From sequence record PZ452598.1: a stretch of DNA of 64,000 nucleotides, one strand, 5' to 3'. This document shows, piece by piece, positions 6,975 through 64,000 of the stretch; position 1 is the stretch's first letter; the number at the start of each line of letters is the position of its first letter. Position numbers and translations under genes: made by a program. Origin of the DNA: a phage. A model generated the notes under the pieces. The model made no database searches and was not told where the DNA came from. It saw only the letters and a program-made list of their open reading frames with translations.

Positions 6975-8167
6975 ATAATGTCAAACTGTTCTTTAAAGCA
7001 GAAGCTTGAATCTTGATGCTGATACAAAAATTCATATGCTTTTTCTCGCTCACGGTCATAAAGAGCTCGGTCAGATGACAGTTCTTTAATACGTTCAAAT
7101 GTTGATTCCATATCATTTTCATCAAACCAAATGATACCGCTATCATGCGAGGTCAAAGGAGTATTATCAACACGGAATTTTAAATTTTCGCCAGTAGATT
7201 TCCAAAATACCGGAATTGTTCCACATGCACCAAGCTCGAGATGAGTATATTCGAGTGAGCGTTGTAAGTATTTCTGGTTAAGTTTACTCAACTGATATCC
7301 AAAGCCAGATTTACTCATTCGTTCAAGCATTTCACTATTAATATAACAATCTAGGATTTGTGCCGGTTGATTCGGCGCGAGATTCATTTTATCAATCTCA
7401 CGATTACCGTAATATTCATACGGAATACCTTTTTCCTTAATTGCAATAAAAGCAGGGGAACGTTCCAGACCTTCCATTACAGTGGATTTACCAGCAGGTT
7501 TTAAGAATTTTTCATGAAAATCAAACATCTGGTAAAAACCTTTCCATGTAGTCGTACGACCAATCCAACGGTTGATATTCATGTTAATTTCAGAAACATC
7601 TTTCCAATAAGTTGACCGAACCTTCACAATATCCATAGGAGGCTGAAAATTATATACTGTCGGTGCTTCTTCAATATCATCAAACAGAGAAACAGTTTCT
7701 GGATACCATTCTTTCATCAGAACTTTATTAAAATCACCATTATCAGAATGGCTAAAAATAACATCAGCTCGACGAACAGTTTCTTCTAATCCCAAATTTC
7801 GACGCAAAGAAAGAACAGAATGATCATGCTGATAAACTACAACACGAATAGAAGGTTTAATATTATCTAAAAGTTTTTTATAGTTATTAATCGTAGCTTC
7901 TTGAACGGAAGTAGCAGGAACAGAATTAATAATTAGAATATCACAATCATTTACTAGCTTAAGTGCTTTATCGTATTCTTTAGCTAAAATAACTGGAATT
8001 GAAAATGATTTGTGGTCATGAGAACTTGTACGAGTAAATGATTTATCTTTAGCATAAACCAAAGTTACTTCATGACCATTTTTAATAAACCAATCACGTT
8101 GCTCGAGTGAGAATTTTGTTACACCACAACCTTCAAGACCTCGAGCCATAAAAATGCAAATACGCAT
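6965..8167 (-). CDS. a-gt: DNA alpha-glucosyltransferase (400 aa)
   Basis: 400-aa ORF MRICIFMARGLEGCGVTKFSLEQRDWF...; size and position match T4 a-gt. Confidence 0.8.
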   Translation of the reverse strand: MRICIFMARGLEGCGVTKFSLEQRDWFIKNGHEVTLVYAKDKSFTRTSSHDHKSFSIPVILAKEYDKALKLVNDCDILIINSVPATSVQEATINNYKKLLDNIKPSIRVVVYQHDHSVLSLRRNLGLEETVRRADVIFSHSDNGDFNKVLMKEWYPETVSLFDDIEEAPTVYNFQPPMDIVKVRSTYWKDVSEINMNINRWIGRTTTWKGFYQMFDFHEKFLKPAGKSTVMEGLERSPAFIAIKEKGIPYEYYGNREIDKMNLAPNQPAQILDCYINSEMLERMSKSGFGYQLSKLNQKYLQRSLEYTHLELGACGTIPVFWKSTGENLKFRVDNTPLTSHDSGIIWFDENDMESTFERIKELSSDRALYDREREKAYEFLYQHQDSSFCFKEQFDIITK

Positions 8168-8225
8168 AGTTTTCCTCTTTTCATTTAATAAATCATGTAA
8201 ATAATATTTTATTTTCTATAAAACG

Positions 8226-9020
8226 CTACGAATAGGCCCAAACATATCCATAAGCAATTTTGCTTTTTCCAGATATGCACTTTTTAATATTAGACATGCA
8301 TCCTTTAACGGATACAGCTGCGTCTTTAATTCTAGGAAATACTCGTAATAATTTTCCAGTAGTATCATATTGAAATACTGGCACATTTCTTTTCTGAGTT
8401 ATCCCACGTTTAGATTTAGACATTTTTTGTTTAGTTGCATTAGACATCCTAGAGGGCTTTCCTATGTTATCAGAATAATAATATTTCCATTGAAATCCTC
8501 CAGCGGTTTTCCTTTTACCATCTACACATTGTTTAATTGAAGTTGAACAGCTATATGACATATCTTCTGCAGCATCTGTAATACATCTATATTTGCGAAT
8601 AAAATTTCCATTTAAATCATATTGATAAATTGGTTTTCCAGCATTTCGTCTAGCGTTAGACATGTATTTTTTATTATCATCATCTTTCCAGAACTCTTTC
8701 ATGCTTTCCGATATTGAAGAAGATACAGCTGTTTTAATCCATCCATACATTTTATTATTTAGTCTTGTTCCGTCAGAACTATAACACATCATACGAATAG
8801 CTAAAGCCAATTTAGGAAGTCTATAAATTTTAAATAATAATAAATGCGCGGTAAAATGTTCTTCTGGTGTCAAAAGAACTAAATTAGTTTTATCATCTGT
8901 ACCACCCATACATCTAGGAATTATATGATGTGTTTCAGTATAGTATGTCAAAAGACTTTTATCATTGCCTCTGTTTAGTCCTTTTTCGATCAGTAAATTA
9001 TATATGTTTAAATAATTCAT
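8226..9020 (-). CDS. mobB: HNH homing endonuclease (264 aa; mobB-like)
   Basis: HNH motif ETHHIIPRCMGGTDDKTNLVLLTPEEHFTAH; C-terminal tandem NUMOD-like DNA-binding repeats (IKQCVDGKRKTAGGFQWKY / IKKCISGKSKIAYGYVWAY). Confidence 0.6.
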   Translation of the reverse strand: MNYLNIYNLLIEKGLNRGNDKSLLTYYTETHHIIPRCMGGTDDKTNLVLLTPEEHFTAHLLLFKIYRLPKLALAIRMMCYSSDGTRLNNKMYGWIKTAVSSSISESMKEFWKDDDNKKYMSNARRNAGKPIYQYDLNGNFIRKYRCITDAAEDMSYSCSTSIKQCVDGKRKTAGGFQWKYYYSDNIGKPSRMSNATKQKMSKSKRGITQKRNVPVFQYDTTGKLLRVFPRIKDAAVSVKGCMSNIKKCISGKSKIAYGYVWAYS

Positions 9021-25012: not shown

Positions 25013-25225
25013 TCATTTTTGTCCTGTATTTACTTTGTGCCGATGCACGGCCTTAACTTTATCAAGGTATTTTTCAAAATTTCGCAATCTAGTATAGTCT
25101 GCCGGAGATTGGTTGAGTGATACTTCTCGACGCAAAGCTGAAATGATATTTCCAACTTCCCTACGAATTTCATCTAATTGAAGAACAGTAAGATTGCGAA
25201 GTTGCTTTTCAGTTAATTGTAGCAT
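25013..25225 (-). CDS. hypothetical protein (70 aa)
   Basis: ORF between tk and rI. Confidence 0.45.
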
Positions 25226-25267
25226 ATATACCCCTTTAGTTAGATAAACCTATTTATAACTTTTGCA

Positions 25268-25849
25268 CTAACCGAGCTTTTTAGTTAATTCATTCCAATG
25301 TTTTCTACACAAAGAAACATAAATTTCATCACCAATACAAATTTGATTACCTTCTTTAACTGGTGTTCCATCTTCCATTAATCGAGCTGTCATAATCGCT
25401 TTTTTACCACAATGACAAACTGCTTTTAGTTCAATAAGTTTATCTGCAATCGCTAAAAGTTCTTTAGAACCTTCAAATAATTTTCCAGCGAAATCAGTCC
25501 TTAGCCCATAAGCCATAACAGGAACATTATATGTATCAACAATTCGGCTCAATTGATGCACCTGTTCAGTTTTTAAAAACTGAGCTTCATCTACAAATAC
25601 GCAATGAATATCTTTTTGTGCTTCAGCCCATTTATAGAACTCGAAAATATCCATATCATCTGTAATAATATTCGCTTCCTGCTTAATTCCAATGCGAGAA
25701 ACGACTTCACAGACAGAATCGCGAGTATCAATAGCAGGCTTAAGAACTAATACACTCATTCCACGTTCTTTATAATTATGTGCAGCAGTCAAAAGAGAAG
25801 CAGATTTTCCAGCATTCATTGCTGCATAAGTAAAAATTAAACTCGCCAT
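25268..25849 (-). CDS. tk: thymidine kinase (193 aa)
   Basis: P-loop NAGKSAS, zinc ribbon CHCGKKA...C..H typical of TK1-family kinases. Confidence 0.9.
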   Translation of the reverse strand: MASLIFTYAAMNAGKSASLLTAAHNYKERGMSVLVLKPAIDTRDSVCEVVSRIGIKQEANIITDDMDIFEFYKWAEAQKDIHCVFVDEAQFLKTEQVHQLSRIVDTYNVPVMAYGLRTDFAGKLFEGSKELLAIADKLIELKAVCHCGKKAIMTARLMEDGTPVKEGNQICIGDEIYVSLCRKHWNELTKKLG

Positions 25850-25850
25850 C

Positions 25851-26039
25851 TTAGTCCTTAGTTAAATTTTCTAAATATGTTTCTAAATCATTTTCAGCTT
25901 TATCGATAGATTTTACTAATTCGTAATATGTTTCGGCATCTCCATATTCAGAAGATATTTCAAAAGACAAATCCTTTTCTAAACTAATAATTTCACCAAC
26001 TAAAAATAATATTTCGTTCTTTTGTTCGCGAGTAATCAT
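25851..26039 (-). CDS. small acidic protein (62 aa), paralog of next ORF
   Basis: REQKNEILFLVGEI... aligns with KEQKDTLFSLIHEV... of 26036-26227. Confidence 0.5.
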   Translation of the reverse strand: MITREQKNEILFLVGEIISLEKDLSFEISSEYGDAETYYELVKSIDKAENDLETYLENLTKD

Positions 26040-26227
26040 AAGGAATTTATATAATCAATGAGTTCTTGTTCTTTATTATCGAATTCTTTAGAAAGTTCTT
26101 CGTACTCGTTTGCGCTAAAAGGACCGCATTCATTACAAACTTTTTCCAATTCACTATTTTTATCCATAACTTCGTGGATAAGAGAAAAGAGTGTGTCTTT
26201 TTGTTCTTTGCTTAAACTCATAACCAT
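26036..26227 (-). CDS. small acidic protein (63 aa), paralog of previous ORF
   Basis: tandem duplicate. Confidence 0.5.
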   Translation of the reverse strand: MVMSLSKEQKDTLFSLIHEVMDKNSELEKVCNECGPFSANEYEELSKEFDNKEQELIDYINSL

Positions 26228-26445
26228 GTCACCTTTAAGCAGTATTCTTCTACATGCTGTTTACGACCTTTCTTATCAATAAAGGTATATTCAACGAATG
26301 TTCCAATGTAGTCTTTATCTACATCATGTGGACTATTAATTGGACATTTAGTGCGACAAATGCGTTCCCATTGACGAATAATTACTGCCTTATTCTTTGG
26401 GTCATATGGATGTGGATAATGTATATTCATAATAATGGTTCCCAA
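26218..26445 (-). CDS. hypothetical protein (75 aa)
   Basis: ORF. Confidence 0.45.
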   Translation of the reverse strand: MGTIIMNIHYPHPYDPKNKAVIIRQWERICRTKCPINSPHDVDKDYIGTFVEYTFIDKKGRKQHVEEYCLKVTWL

Positions 26446-26894
26446 TCAACAATCACAATTTCTAATTTAGAGGAATATGTATCTAAAATCCCCTCAATAA
26501 TATCCCAGTTCCCTTTACCTATGCCTGCACCAATCCTAGGCATATAGATTGTAGGTTTAATCAGTTTATTTTCACCAAACTCATTTAATTCTAACATACA
26601 ATTCATTAAAGCGGAATACTCAAAATTTGGCCCTGGTTGAAATTGAGTATAAAGATTGAAGCAGTAAGCTTTATGAGTCCTAAAGTATTTTTCATAGACT
26701 GAGTAAGAACCGAGTTTAGTTACATCACCCCATTCAGTCTGTAATTTATCAGCTTCCAAAATTTTAGGGAAAGCTTTGGTTAATTGACCCGCTACGCCTG
26801 AACCCATAGTATGAAAACAATTACATCCATGTGCAATATTTTTACCTTCAGCGAAAAGGGCGACAATATCGCCCTTGATATATTTTACAATCAT
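26427..26894 (-). CDS. macro-domain-like protein (155 aa)
   Basis: N-terminal IVKYIKGDI...AHGCNCFHTMGSGVAGQL resembles macro-domain ADP-ribose-binding glycine-rich loop. Confidence 0.45.
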   Translation of the reverse strand: MIVKYIKGDIVALFAEGKNIAHGCNCFHTMGSGVAGQLTKAFPKILEADKLQTEWGDVTKLGSYSVYEKYFRTHKAYCFNLYTQFQPGPNFEYSALMNCMLELNEFGENKLIKPTIYMPRIGAGIGKGNWDIIEGILDTYSSKLEIVIVDWEPLL

Positions 26895-27238
26895 CTAGTA
26901 CTCAATCCTCGATTATAAGAATCTACCAAACGGTCAACCATTGAATGACAAGCGGCTTTATCTTTCTCCTCCGCAACTGAACATTCTAAGGTATTCCACT
27001 TTTTAGCATATCGTTTTAACAATGTATCGTTTTTGTATCTGCTTGATTTATCTCTTTCTCCGTCTTTATATGCATATATTAATTTCTGTGCAAATTCAGC
27101 TTGGCATGCCTTATTTTTCCCACAATAATCTGCCGCAGTGCGGTTTACATATTCTCTAATTTCAGTATATGATGTATCTGCTGACGCAGAAGCAGAAAAT
27201 GAAATTAATCCTATACATAAAACCAAAATTTTAGTCAT
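26891..27238 (-). CDS. secreted small protein with signal peptide (115 aa; positional vs)
   Basis: signal peptide MTKILVLCIGLISFSASASA; four Cys. Confidence 0.45.
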   Translation of the reverse strand: MTKILVLCIGLISFSASASADTSYTEIREYVNRTAADYCGKNKACQAEFAQKLIYAYKDGERDKSSRYKNDTLLKRYAKKWNTLECSVAEEKDKAACHSMVDRLVDSYNRGLSTR

Positions 27239-27776
27239 TTACTATTTCCAAAAGTTTATTATTTTTAAGGTAATTAGCCTTTTCTAGGACTTCAGAAGCA
27301 TATTTAGAACCTGCTTTAACATTCCATCCCGAATTATAAGAGGATATTGCTTTTCTTATATCGCCCTTATGTATATTTAACCAATAAGAAAGTTCAATGT
27401 ACGCCCAGGAAGCTGAATTGGATCGTTTATTCAACATTCTTTTTATTTCAGCATCGGTCATATTATAACCAAGTTCCTTAACTCTTGCTCGCATAGTAGG
27501 CAAATAATTTTGGAACATTCCGTAGGCGTGATGCTTTGGTTTAGATTTTAAATTAACTCCGCCAGAGCTTTCTTGCCATAAAATGGCAGCCATTATATGA
27601 CCTAATCCGCTCTTGTGGATATTTTTGTGTGTTTTATATTTTCCATCCTTAGAAAATTGTTCCCCGAATTGATACGCGTAACGCATGTTATCGAGTTGGA
27701 CATTACTGAAAGTATGCTCGGAGCTATGTGCCATCATTGAAATGGCCAATAGACCAGCGAGTAGTGCTTTTCTCAT
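27231..27776 (-). CDS. secreted lytic transglycosylase-like protein (181 aa)
   Basis: signal peptide MRKALLAGLLAISMMAHS; SLT catalytic-type motif ILWQESSGG and downstream YGMFQ. Confidence 0.55.
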   Translation of the reverse strand: MRKALLAGLLAISMMAHSSEHTFSNVQLDNMRYAYQFGEQFSKDGKYKTHKNIHKSGLGHIMAAILWQESSGGVNLKSKPKHHAYGMFQNYLPTMRARVKELGYNMTDAEIKRMLNKRSNSASWAYIELSYWLNIHKGDIRKAISSYNSGWNVKAGSKYASEVLEKANYLKNNKLLEIVND

Positions 27777-27783
27777 GCTTACC

Positions 27784-28245
27784 TCATTGAGTTTTAATTA
27801 CTGCTTTAGAAGCCTTTCCTGGTAAACGACGACTGTTGATAATTGCCATCCTACATTGAAGTGACGGGTCTTTGAACTTCTCGTTAGGTTTACAAACTGT
27901 AAATCCAAGCCAAAGATTTCCATCTGTGATTTCTAAACGTCCAGGACGATATTCAACCCCATCAATAAAATCCTCGTCAATGTCAGGACGCGGAGGCATA
28001 CTCAGGAATTCATTAACTTCTAAAACATGGTCTTTTATTTTATGGAATAATTCAAAAACGTATGTCTCATCAATCTCCCGTTGAATTGCGCGATCAAGAA
28101 GATGTTGAGAATATTTTAGATGAAACGATGAGACTCCTGCTGCTTTTGATGCCTCACGAATCTCATTGTTAATTTGACGAAACTCCGACTCAAAGTGACG
28201 ACGAAGCTTATTTCGACGGATAAAAACTTCTGTATTGATAGTCAT
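27784..28245 (-). CDS. regB: endoribonuclease RegB (153 aa)
   Basis: 153-aa ORF MTINTEVFIRRNKLRRHFESEF...; size/position match T4 regB. Confidence 0.75.
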   Translation of the reverse strand: MTINTEVFIRRNKLRRHFESEFRQINNEIREASKAAGVSSFHLKYSQHLLDRAIQREIDETYVFELFHKIKDHVLEVNEFLSMPPRPDIDEDFIDGVEYRPGRLEITDGNLWLGFTVCKPNEKFKDPSLQCRMAIINSRRLPGKASKAVIKTQ

Positions 28246-28270
28246 GTTATTCTCCTCTTAACTGATAGAA

Positions 28271-28305
28271 AAATTATACCACAGTCAAGAGGAAAAGTAA
28301 ACAGT
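28271..28305 (-). promoter_or_regulatory. early promoter GTTTAC-N18-TATAAT upstream of regB
   Basis: plus 28298-28303 gtaaac, 28273-28278 attata with TGTGG extended -10. Confidence 0.55.
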
Positions 28306-28625
28306 TATTCTTTAAATCTAATCAATTTATTCATAGACTTTGAAACTTCGGCACGAACCTCATGTAGATTTTTGAGCTGTTCAAGACGCTGCGTATAGTA
28401 AGCAATTTCATCTTCTTCGAGACAGTCCTGCGAATCTTCTTTAAGATAACGTGCATAGTCCTGGAAAGCGTTACGGACTACTTCCTGGAAGTCATCAAGA
28501 CTTTGAATTTTCTTAGGAGCAACAGATACACGACGAGGGGCAGTATAATACTCATAACCAAACCCTGCGCTTAATTGAGCCATTAGTATTTTTCCTCTGG
28601 TTGGAACACTGCACGACAAGCCCAC
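28305..28625 (-). CDS. hypothetical protein (106 aa)
   Basis: ORF. Confidence 0.45.
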
Positions 28626-28885
28626 ATACTGGCTTCTTTGAGTTTCGTTTTAGCAATAGTTAACTGATCGAGACTTTCAGCATAATTCTTCGCGAATTCA
28701 CAGTCTTCGCAATTATCTAGTGCTTCCCAGAATTCATCATATAAAGCATCAAAGATAAGTCCTAAACGAACTTCAGCGTCTTTAATAGCATTTACTTTAC
28801 CGATTTTCTCTTCAGTATGTGGTTTATAACCCTTAATATCTTCAATCATATTTGACTTCCTCACCAGTACATAAATCGTATTCAA
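28583..28885 (-). CDS. hypothetical small protein (100 aa or 88 aa from MIEDIKGY); positional vs.4, candidate cyclic-oligonucleotide sponge Acb2
   Basis: position in regB-denV small-gene block; identity not verifiable by eye. Confidence 0.4.
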
Positions 28886-29063
28886 CTAAACGAATAGGTT
28901 CATGAATGCCATAGCCTTGAACAGAAATTTCTGTCGTAGGATAAATTCCATCAATATCACCCATATTCCACGCTTCATTAAATTGCTGTTCGCCTGAGTT
29001 ACTAAACCACTCGGCGAAAGCATTTAGCACATCTTCAGAACCTTCAATAATTATCTTTGCCAT
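28842..29063 (-). CDS. hypothetical acidic protein (73 aa)
   Basis: ORF. Confidence 0.45.
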   Translation of the reverse strand: MAKIIIEGSEDVLNAFAEWFSNSGEQQFNEAWNMGDIDGIYPTTEISVQGYGIHEPIRLVEYDLCTGEEVKYD

Positions 29064-29425
29064 TACAAACTTTCAGTAAAGGTACGAGCGATAACGTCGC
29101 GCTGCTGTTCCGGAGTCAGAGAGTTAAAGCGAACTGCATAACCGGATACACGGATGGTCAGCTGCGGATATTTTTCCGGATGCTTAACTGCATCTTCCAG
29201 AGTTTCACGACGCAGAACGTTAACGTTCAGGTGTTGACCACCTTCAATTTTAACTGTAGGTTGTGGCTCAATTTCAATTTCACGGGCATGCAAACCATAG
29301 AAAATTTCTGGGTCTACAAAAGAGTCCTCTTTAAAGGTTTTAGAGACAATAATTCGTGCTTGAATACCATCTTCAAAATAAATAGTACCTTTATGTGTGC
29401 CTTCAAGAATTTGATATGCTTTCAT
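29063..29425 (-). CDS. glycyl-radical cofactor protein (GrcA/YfiD-like, 120 aa)
   Basis: C-terminal RVSGYAVRF glycyl-radical signature and [10 protein letters not shown] block as in pyruvate formate-lyase C-terminus/GrcA. Confidence 0.75.
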
Positions 29426-31999: not shown

Positions 32000-32968
<969 letters not shown>

Positions 32969-32987
<19 letters not shown>

Positions 32988-59120: not shown

Positions 59121-60822
<1,702 letters not shown>

Positions 60823-60863
60823 TAAATATTATAAACTAATTAAAGCCCGGATTAGGAGAAGTC

Positions 60864-64000
<3,137 letters not shown>

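Follow-up and report, generated by a model that had tools for sequence, protein, structure and literature searches.

It was concluded that the 155-aa open reading frame at 26427..26894 on the minus strand of the window, the whole 64,000-nt stretch of phage DNA that was analysed, is the phage T4 gene tk.4 (NP_049723.1), recently renamed adfM, and that its product is a standalone macro domain of the ALC1-like class (TARG1, DarG, SCO6735, Poa1p). Tk.4 is most likely a hydrolase removing the ADP-ribose that the host toxin DarT2 places on thymidines of the phage DNA, and it would probably do so with a Gln/Asn pair of the SCO6735 type. The macro domain and the anti-DarTG2 role of tk.4 are already known from a table of 2006, a RefSeq note and a preprint of 2025. 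However, neither the Gln-type site of Tk.4 nor its apparently independent origin relative to the second phage protein named AdfM, PhiKZ gp104, was found stated in those portions of the literature that were accessible.

Identity and genomic context of tk.4

The reading frame extends from an ATG to a TGA codon. The surrounding DNA, from position 26000 to 27300 of the window, was 100% identical to positions 60495-61795 of the T4 genome NC_000866.4 over 1301 bases including tk.4, and the same stretch was also 100% identical in a dozen further T4 records. The RefSeq note on tk.4 reads "phosphatase; Tk.4; contains A1pp phosphatase motif", and the further T4 records label the product "macro domain-containing protein". 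The original prediction had given the position and length of the frame exactly, with no strand, and it had placed the gene between tk and regB. Both genes were indeed found on either side, tk at 25268..25849 and regB at 27784..28245, each on the minus strand, where the gene order is regB, vs.1, vs, tk.4, tk.3, tk.2, tk.1 and tk.

A GAGGA Shine-Dalgarno sequence (26906..26910, minus strand, read as TCCTC on the plus strand) lies 11 nt upstream of the tk.4 ATG. The stop codon of vs and the start codon of tk.4 share an ATGA (26891..26894, minus strand), as seen from the ORF coordinates and the sequence, and a second ATGA (26427..26430, minus strand) joins the tk.4 stop to the start of tk.3, as the sequence and the T4 annotation of tk.3 show (T4 60713..60925, corresponding to 26218..26430 of the window). 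The overlap of vs and tk.4 suggests translational coupling in the vs.1-vs-tk.4-tk.3 gene string. The protein database contained 203 homologs at E<=1e-3. Based on the T4 identity, the Pfam Macro match, the homologs, the tblastn matches in phages, the GAGGA sequence and the ATGA overlaps, tk.4 is a real gene and no chance reading frame.

The scan of positions 25200..29200 for promoters was uninformative on the transcription of tk.4, since 15 promoter-like sites were found when 14.9 were expected from shuffles. A terminator-like hairpin at 26856..26876 on the plus strand, consisting of 8 pairs followed by a T-run, lies antisense to the 5' end of tk.4. It is probably due to chance, because the same scanned region held 3 terminator-like sites against 1.9 expected.

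Several observations were made on the neighbouring genes. The tk.3 product (26218..26430, minus strand) matched Pfam DUF7202 over its full length (131 bits), and its start was set at a TTG at 26445 in the mechanical ORF list and at an ATG at 26430 in the annotation. The Vs protein (26891..27238, minus strand), the 'valyl-tRNA synthetase modifier', had no Pfam match. It starts with MTKILVLCIGLISFSASASA, which resembles a signal peptide for secretion and is unexpected in a supposed modifier of a cytoplasmic synthetase. In the accessible part of the HIDEN-SEQ preprint (bioRxiv 10.1101/2025.11.20.689424), vs was depleted more strongly than any other T4 gene in minimal medium. The vs.1 product (27231..27776, minus strand) matched the SLT transglycosylase domain weakly but above the cut-off (25.1 vs 21.3 bits) and has a signal-like N-terminus, MRKALLAGLLAISMMAHS. 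Two apparently exported proteins are encoded, in this way, directly upstream of the cytoplasmic tk.4.

Macro fold and the ADP-ribose site

The macro-domain assignment had been made by eye in the original prediction, which proposed that it be judged by a profile search and by the predicted fold. Both were macro, and the assignment was borne out as the sequence profile, the predicted fold and the conserved loops agreed. Tk.4 scored 27.7 bits with the Pfam Macro profile PF01661 (gathering cut-off 22), with residues 22-132 aligned to positions 2-113 of 118. Searched as a single sequence against solved structures, it matched BT1257 at 1.3e-9, and also yeast Poa1p, SCO6735, both DarG macrodomains and human TARG1. 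The family profile, based on an alignment of 50 Tk.4 homologs (A1), matched BT1257 (1.7e-17), TARG1 (1.1e-14), SCO6735 (5.1e-14) and M. tuberculosis DarG (4.3e-13). The structure predicted by AlphaFold2 from A1 (pLDDT 95.8, pTM 0.91) had the three-layer alpha/beta/alpha macro fold, and Tk.4 was closest to ALC1-like structures rather than to the MacroD, viral, PARG or macroH2A classes.

Residues 21-38, AHGCNCFHTMGSGVAGQL (26781..26834, minus strand), were recognised as macro loop 1, containing N25 and G31-S-G33-V34. The likeness of this segment to an ADP-ribose binding loop, noticed beforehand, was thus correct, and N25 and G33 proved invariant. The glycine-rich loop is present as described, but it follows the second strand, beta2, and not the first one: in the AlphaFold2 structure the segment comprises the end of beta2 (20-24), a loop (25-32) and the start of a helix (33-41). 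By analogy with other macro domains, the G31-S-G33-V motif may contact the distal ribose and the phosphate. Residues H22, G23, N25, G33 and A35 were invariant or nearly so in the 50 homologs and in 81/81 sequences, the latter being Tk.4 and 80 bacterial relatives whose loci were picked by the peptide patterns HGCNC and IGAGxxGGxW, so that the conservation of those motifs in the bacterial set is partly by construction. N25 itself, present in 50/50 and 81/81 sequences, aligns with the Asn residues that were mutated in SCO6735 (N27S), DarG and PhiKZ AdfM (N23A).

Residues 119-130, PRIGAGIGKGNW (26505..26540, minus strand), form macro loop 2, the diphosphate-binding loop, as judged by conservation and by the alignment with TARG1, in which G122-A-G124-I-G126 of Tk.4 was placed against PRIGCGLDRLQW of TARG1. 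P119, I121, G122 and G124 were invariant and W130 nearly so in the 50-homolog and the pattern-selected 81-sequence alignments. Both ADP-ribose loop motifs, Asn...G-x-G-[VIL] and G-x-G-[IL]-x-G, are therefore present in Tk.4.

The residue at the catalytic-lysine position of TARG1 (K84) and DarG (K80) was found by alignment to be Gln84 (codon CAA, 26643..26645, minus strand). It was invariant in A1 (50/50) and in the larger set (81/81), and it lies outside the two selection patterns, as do D49, N80 and Y82. Together, Q84 and N25 align with the Gln and Asn of BT1257. The HMMER alignment of the A1 profile with TARG1 placed YTQ of Tk.4 opposite ITK, and MAFFT L-INS-i aligned NLYTQ of Tk.4 with NFPTK of DarG, MFPTK of PhiKZ gp104, YLITK of TARG1 and NMIGQ of BT1257; the two alignments agree with the published structure-based alignment of SCO6735. 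The register obtained by hhalign against PhiKZ gp104 was one residue off at the T-Q/T-K motif and was rejected. As this shift occurred in a low-confidence stretch, the position of Gln84 was taken from HMMER and MAFFT L-INS-i. In human TARG1/OARD1 (PDB 4J5R) the catalytic dyad is Lys84/Asp125, whereas the corresponding residues of Tk.4 are Gln84 and Gly126. In Poa1p, of the conserved residues that had been probed, H23 aligns with H22 of Tk.4 and S30 with T29, and a Ser occupies the position of Q84.

The two cysteines flanking the active-site Asn25 belong to an H-G-C-N-C motif (residues 22-26; 26817..26831, minus strand). Within the set selected partly by this motif, C24 was found in 77/81 and C26 in 81/81 sequences, and both were conserved at a level of at least 90% in the independent 50-sequence A1. 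The counterpart of the motif is VNTVN in DarG, HCISE in TARG1 and HICND in BT1257.

Removal of DarT2-made ADP-ribose and its alternatives

A table of 2006 already listed the A1pp/macro match of the T4-like tk.4 orthologs (PMC1524935), and T4 was later suggested to encode a further anti-DarTG factor (PMC11825919). In the HIDEN-SEQ preprint of November 2025 (bioRxiv 10.1101/2025.11.20.689424), so far as its accessible text goes, tk.4 alone came out as a significant hit when a transposon library of T4 was grown on a host with DarTG2. A clean knockout of tk.4 sensitised T4 to DarTG2, and the name adfM (anti-DarT factor Macrodomain) was given to the gene. In the words of the same text, it "seems likely" that ADP-ribose is removed from DNA enzymatically. 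These genetic data come from one preprint, with plasmid-borne DarTG2, M9 medium and 30 C (bioRxiv 10.1101/2025.11.20.689424, accessible part). No description of the sufficiency of Tk.4, such as the rescue of T5 by tk.4, was found in that part of the preprint, and no biochemical assay of Tk.4 was found in the accessible literature.

The relevant mark is most likely the ADP-ribose set by the host DarT2 on thymidine in the phage DNA, and the following sequence of events was proposed. On a host carrying DarTG2, the DarT2 toxin would ADP-ribosylate thymidines in single-stranded phage DNA and block its replication. The two conserved loops of Tk.4 would bind the ADP-ribose. Gln84, held by Asn25, would position the distal ribose, and the cleavage would be started by water, as in SCO6735 and not in the Lys-dependent manner of DarG. 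Hydrolysis of the thymidine-ribose bond in the DNA would release free ADP-ribose and restore the template.

A possible fate of the released ADP-ribose is offered by gene e.1 (32532..32987, minus strand), which lies 6 kb from tk.4 and encodes a NUDIX hydrolase (51 bits). The e.1 product, which we take to be active on ADP-ribose, could dispose of the ADP-ribose set free by Tk.4. The DNA of T4 contains glucosyl-hydroxymethyl-C. DarT2 recognises TNTC (PMC13309987). As a point against the proposal, the modified base may bear on how far T4 DNA is open to DarT2.

The proposed chemistry was drawn by analogy from the Gln-type ALC1-like subgroup, represented by SCO6735 of Streptomyces coelicolor (PDB 5E3B) and BT1257 of Bacteroides thetaiotaomicron (PDB 2FG1/2AFC), with which Tk.4 shares both Gln and Asn. 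SCO6735 has Gln85 at the position of DarG K80 and TARG1 K84, its Q85A and Q85E variants were inactive, and its Asn27 holds the Gln in place, the N27S variant being nearly inactive (PMC9411070). A water-initiated mechanism was proposed for this enzyme, which outpaces both DarG and TARG1 in freeing DNA of the thymidine ADP-ribose made by DarT (PMC9411070). We infer a chemistry of the SCO6735 type for Tk.4 because Gln84 stands in place of the DarG/TARG1 lysine. However, the identity of Tk.4 to SCO6735 and BT1257 is only ~25-29%. The subgroup is defined by a mobile loop that is extended by about five residues relative to DarG and TARG1 (PMC9411070), and the alignments showed the Tk.4 family to be without this insertion, with a 6-residue gap against BT1257, hence it is not fully safe to carry the mechanism over. 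In addition, Ser32 of Tk.4, placed by analogy with the GKG motif of BT1257, replaces the DNA-positioning Lys34 of SCO6735, and the H-G-C-N-C motif with its two conserved cysteines is carried by Tk.4, unlike SCO6735 and BT1257.

The accessible text of the preprint calls Tk.4 a DarG homolog, and no mention of the replacement of Lys by Gln was found in it (bioRxiv 10.1101/2025.11.20.689424). DarG proteins (Thermus aquaticus, 5M31/5M3E; M. tuberculosis, 5M3I) carry the catalytic lysine K80, bind DarT through a C-terminal domain and are encoded next to a darT gene. Tk.4 scored 30.3 bits with the DarG equivalog model NF048014 of NCBIfam against a cut-off of 250, with a match confined to the macro region of this model of 338 positions, and its 36 bits with the PADLOC DarG profile were a domain-level match only. 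The C-terminal DarT-binding domain is absent from Tk.4, in which the macro domain fills the 155 aa, and the alignments showed no DarG-type catalytic lysine, its place being taken by Gln84. No darT gene lies beside tk.4 in T4, its neighbours being vs and tk.3. Based on the sub-cut-off score, Gln84, the single domain and the lack of a darT neighbour, it was ruled out that Tk.4 is a DarG.

These differences also bear on a rival mode of action, in which Tk.4 would imitate an antitoxin and protect T4 chiefly because it binds DarT2 and inhibits it, and not because it clears the DNA of ADP-ribose. Such inhibition is possible, as DarT was still inhibited in vitro by the catalytically dead variants of SCO6735 (Q85A), DarG (K80A) and TARG1 (K84A), most strongly by that of SCO6735 (PMC9411070). 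The phage anti-DarT factors AdfA and AdfB were found via escape mutants (PMC11825919), and PMC11481870, by its title, describes one anti-DarT factor as a phage-encoded antitoxin mimic. Tk.4, however, is without the domain by which DarG binds DarT, and it is the ADP-ribose site whose residues are invariant in its homologs from phages and bacteria. Since the active site is strictly conserved, also in the relatives from the 80 bacterial loci, which showed neither a recurrent neighbour nor a DarT-like family, catalysis is favoured, and toxin binding as the main activity was considered unlikely.

The "phosphatase" label of RefSeq and PHROG would make Tk.4 an ADP-ribose-1''-phosphate phosphatase or an O-acetyl-ADP-ribose deacetylase clearing NAD-derived metabolites. 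This label was inherited from an old domain name, with no assay cited along with it, and such an activity leaves the specific need for tk.4 on a DarTG2 host unexplained. The known cellular source of ADP-ribose-1''-phosphate is tRNA splicing of the Tpt1 type, and we know of no part of such splicing in the infection of E. coli by T4. The phosphatase or deacetylase function was therefore regarded as very improbable.

It had been suggested beforehand that a phage macro domain could erase or read ADP-ribose marks, those of the T4 ADP-ribosyltransferases or NAD-derived defence signals being in view. The general idea fits the requirement for tk.4 against DarTG2 as given in the accessible part of the preprint (bioRxiv 10.1101/2025.11.20.689424), while these particular marks and signals appeared less apt. 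The reversal or reading of ADP-ribosylation by Alt, ModA and ModB, or the sequestration of NAD-derived immune signals, should be given hardly any weight as the function of Tk.4. Alt, ModA and ModB modify arginine, and to our knowledge the ALC1-like macro domains act on Asp/Glu esters and thymidine, not on arginine. As for a signal sponge, the closest structural relatives of Tk.4 are DNA/ester hydrolases and not signal-binding macro domains, and the invariant Asn/Gln pair suggests an enzyme.

Distribution, origin and comparison with PhiKZ and T5

By tblastn, matches to Tk.4 were found in 2751/50,697 phage records (~5%), including T4-like phages of many hosts, rV5-like and Felix-O1-like phages, Pseudomonas phages and some Bacillus phages. 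The bacterial pattern scan, with one genome per species, gave more than 510 relatives, and the best 80 of them were kept. Their ORFs were mostly 146-190 aa long, which indicates that these bacterial relatives are standalone proteins. When the 299 ORFs flanking the 80 loci were compared by all-against-all BLAST, no neighbour family occurred at more than 6 loci. Nine representatives of the recurrent groups among these neighbours were scanned. They matched housekeeping families (a class I tRNA synthetase, parts of ABC transporters, a semialdehyde dehydrogenase, an EEP nuclease, an M23 peptidase) or nothing, and no DarT-like family was among the matches. The origin of Tk.4 from an orphaned DarG antitoxin was rejected, as no DarT partner was found beside the bacterial homologs at the 80 loci.

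A second phage protein, PhiKZ gp104, is also named AdfM and is a standalone macrodomain countering DarTG2 (Cell Rep 2026, PMC13309987). It removes ADP-ribose from DarT2-modified DNA in vitro, and the N23A replacement weakens it (PMC13309987). The gp104 sequence used here was the translation of the construct given in the methods of that paper (PMC13309987). The comparison of gp104 with M. tuberculosis DarG gave 90.7 bits, and its FPTK motif with Lys marked it as a true DarG type. With Tk.4, BLASTP gave 21 bits over 23 residues and hhalign a probability of 96%. Both are standalone phage macrodomains acting against DarTG2, but Tk.4 has Gln84 where gp104 has Lys. As gp104 is of the DarG type with Lys and only a distant match to Tk.4, the two appear to be separate captures from different ALC1-like branches. 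Findings on the mechanism, inhibitors and specificity of one of the two AdfM proteins, of T4 or PhiKZ, should thus not be carried over to the other, because the catalytic residue and, it appears, the origin differ.

We tentatively proposed, giving it somewhat less than an even chance, that Tk.4 represents a third type of thymidine-ADP-ribose eraser, which would combine the SCO6735 Gln/Asn site, the short loop of DarG and the H-G-C-N-C motif, and which would have been captured from a widespread bacterial housekeeping macrodomain, not from DarG and independently of the PhiKZ AdfM. If this is true, the Tk.4 family could erase base-linked ADP-ribose in general, on DNA thymidine and perhaps on RNA uridine, whichever toxin wrote the mark.

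Phage T5 served as the DarTG2-sensitive control in both T4 studies, in one case according to the accessible part of the report (bioRxiv 10.1101/2025.11.20.689424; PMC11825919). Its whole genome was divided in six frames from stop to stop, and all 1071 ORF segments of 40 aa or more were searched with the family profile and the filters off. No Tk.4 homolog was found, which is consistent with the sensitivity of T5, and the best match reached 8.8 bits (E 0.075). In the T4 window, a search of this kind returned tk.4 with 207.5 bits and nothing else. The NAD-related annotations of T5 comprised one Sir2 and one HAD domain, with no macro domain among them. T5.105 (7789..8295, plus strand, T5 segment L083; 168 aa), considered as a hidden macro domain, was ruled out, as it is a HAD_SAK_2 protein. 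This gene is labelled 'Sir2 (NAD-dependent deacetylase)' in RefSeq, and Pfam gave HAD_SAK_2 only (73 bits), which is the HAD domain of RNA-repair proteins. The true Sir2 of T5 is the neighbouring T5.102 (87.8 bits), and the RefSeq label on T5.105 is probably an annotation error.
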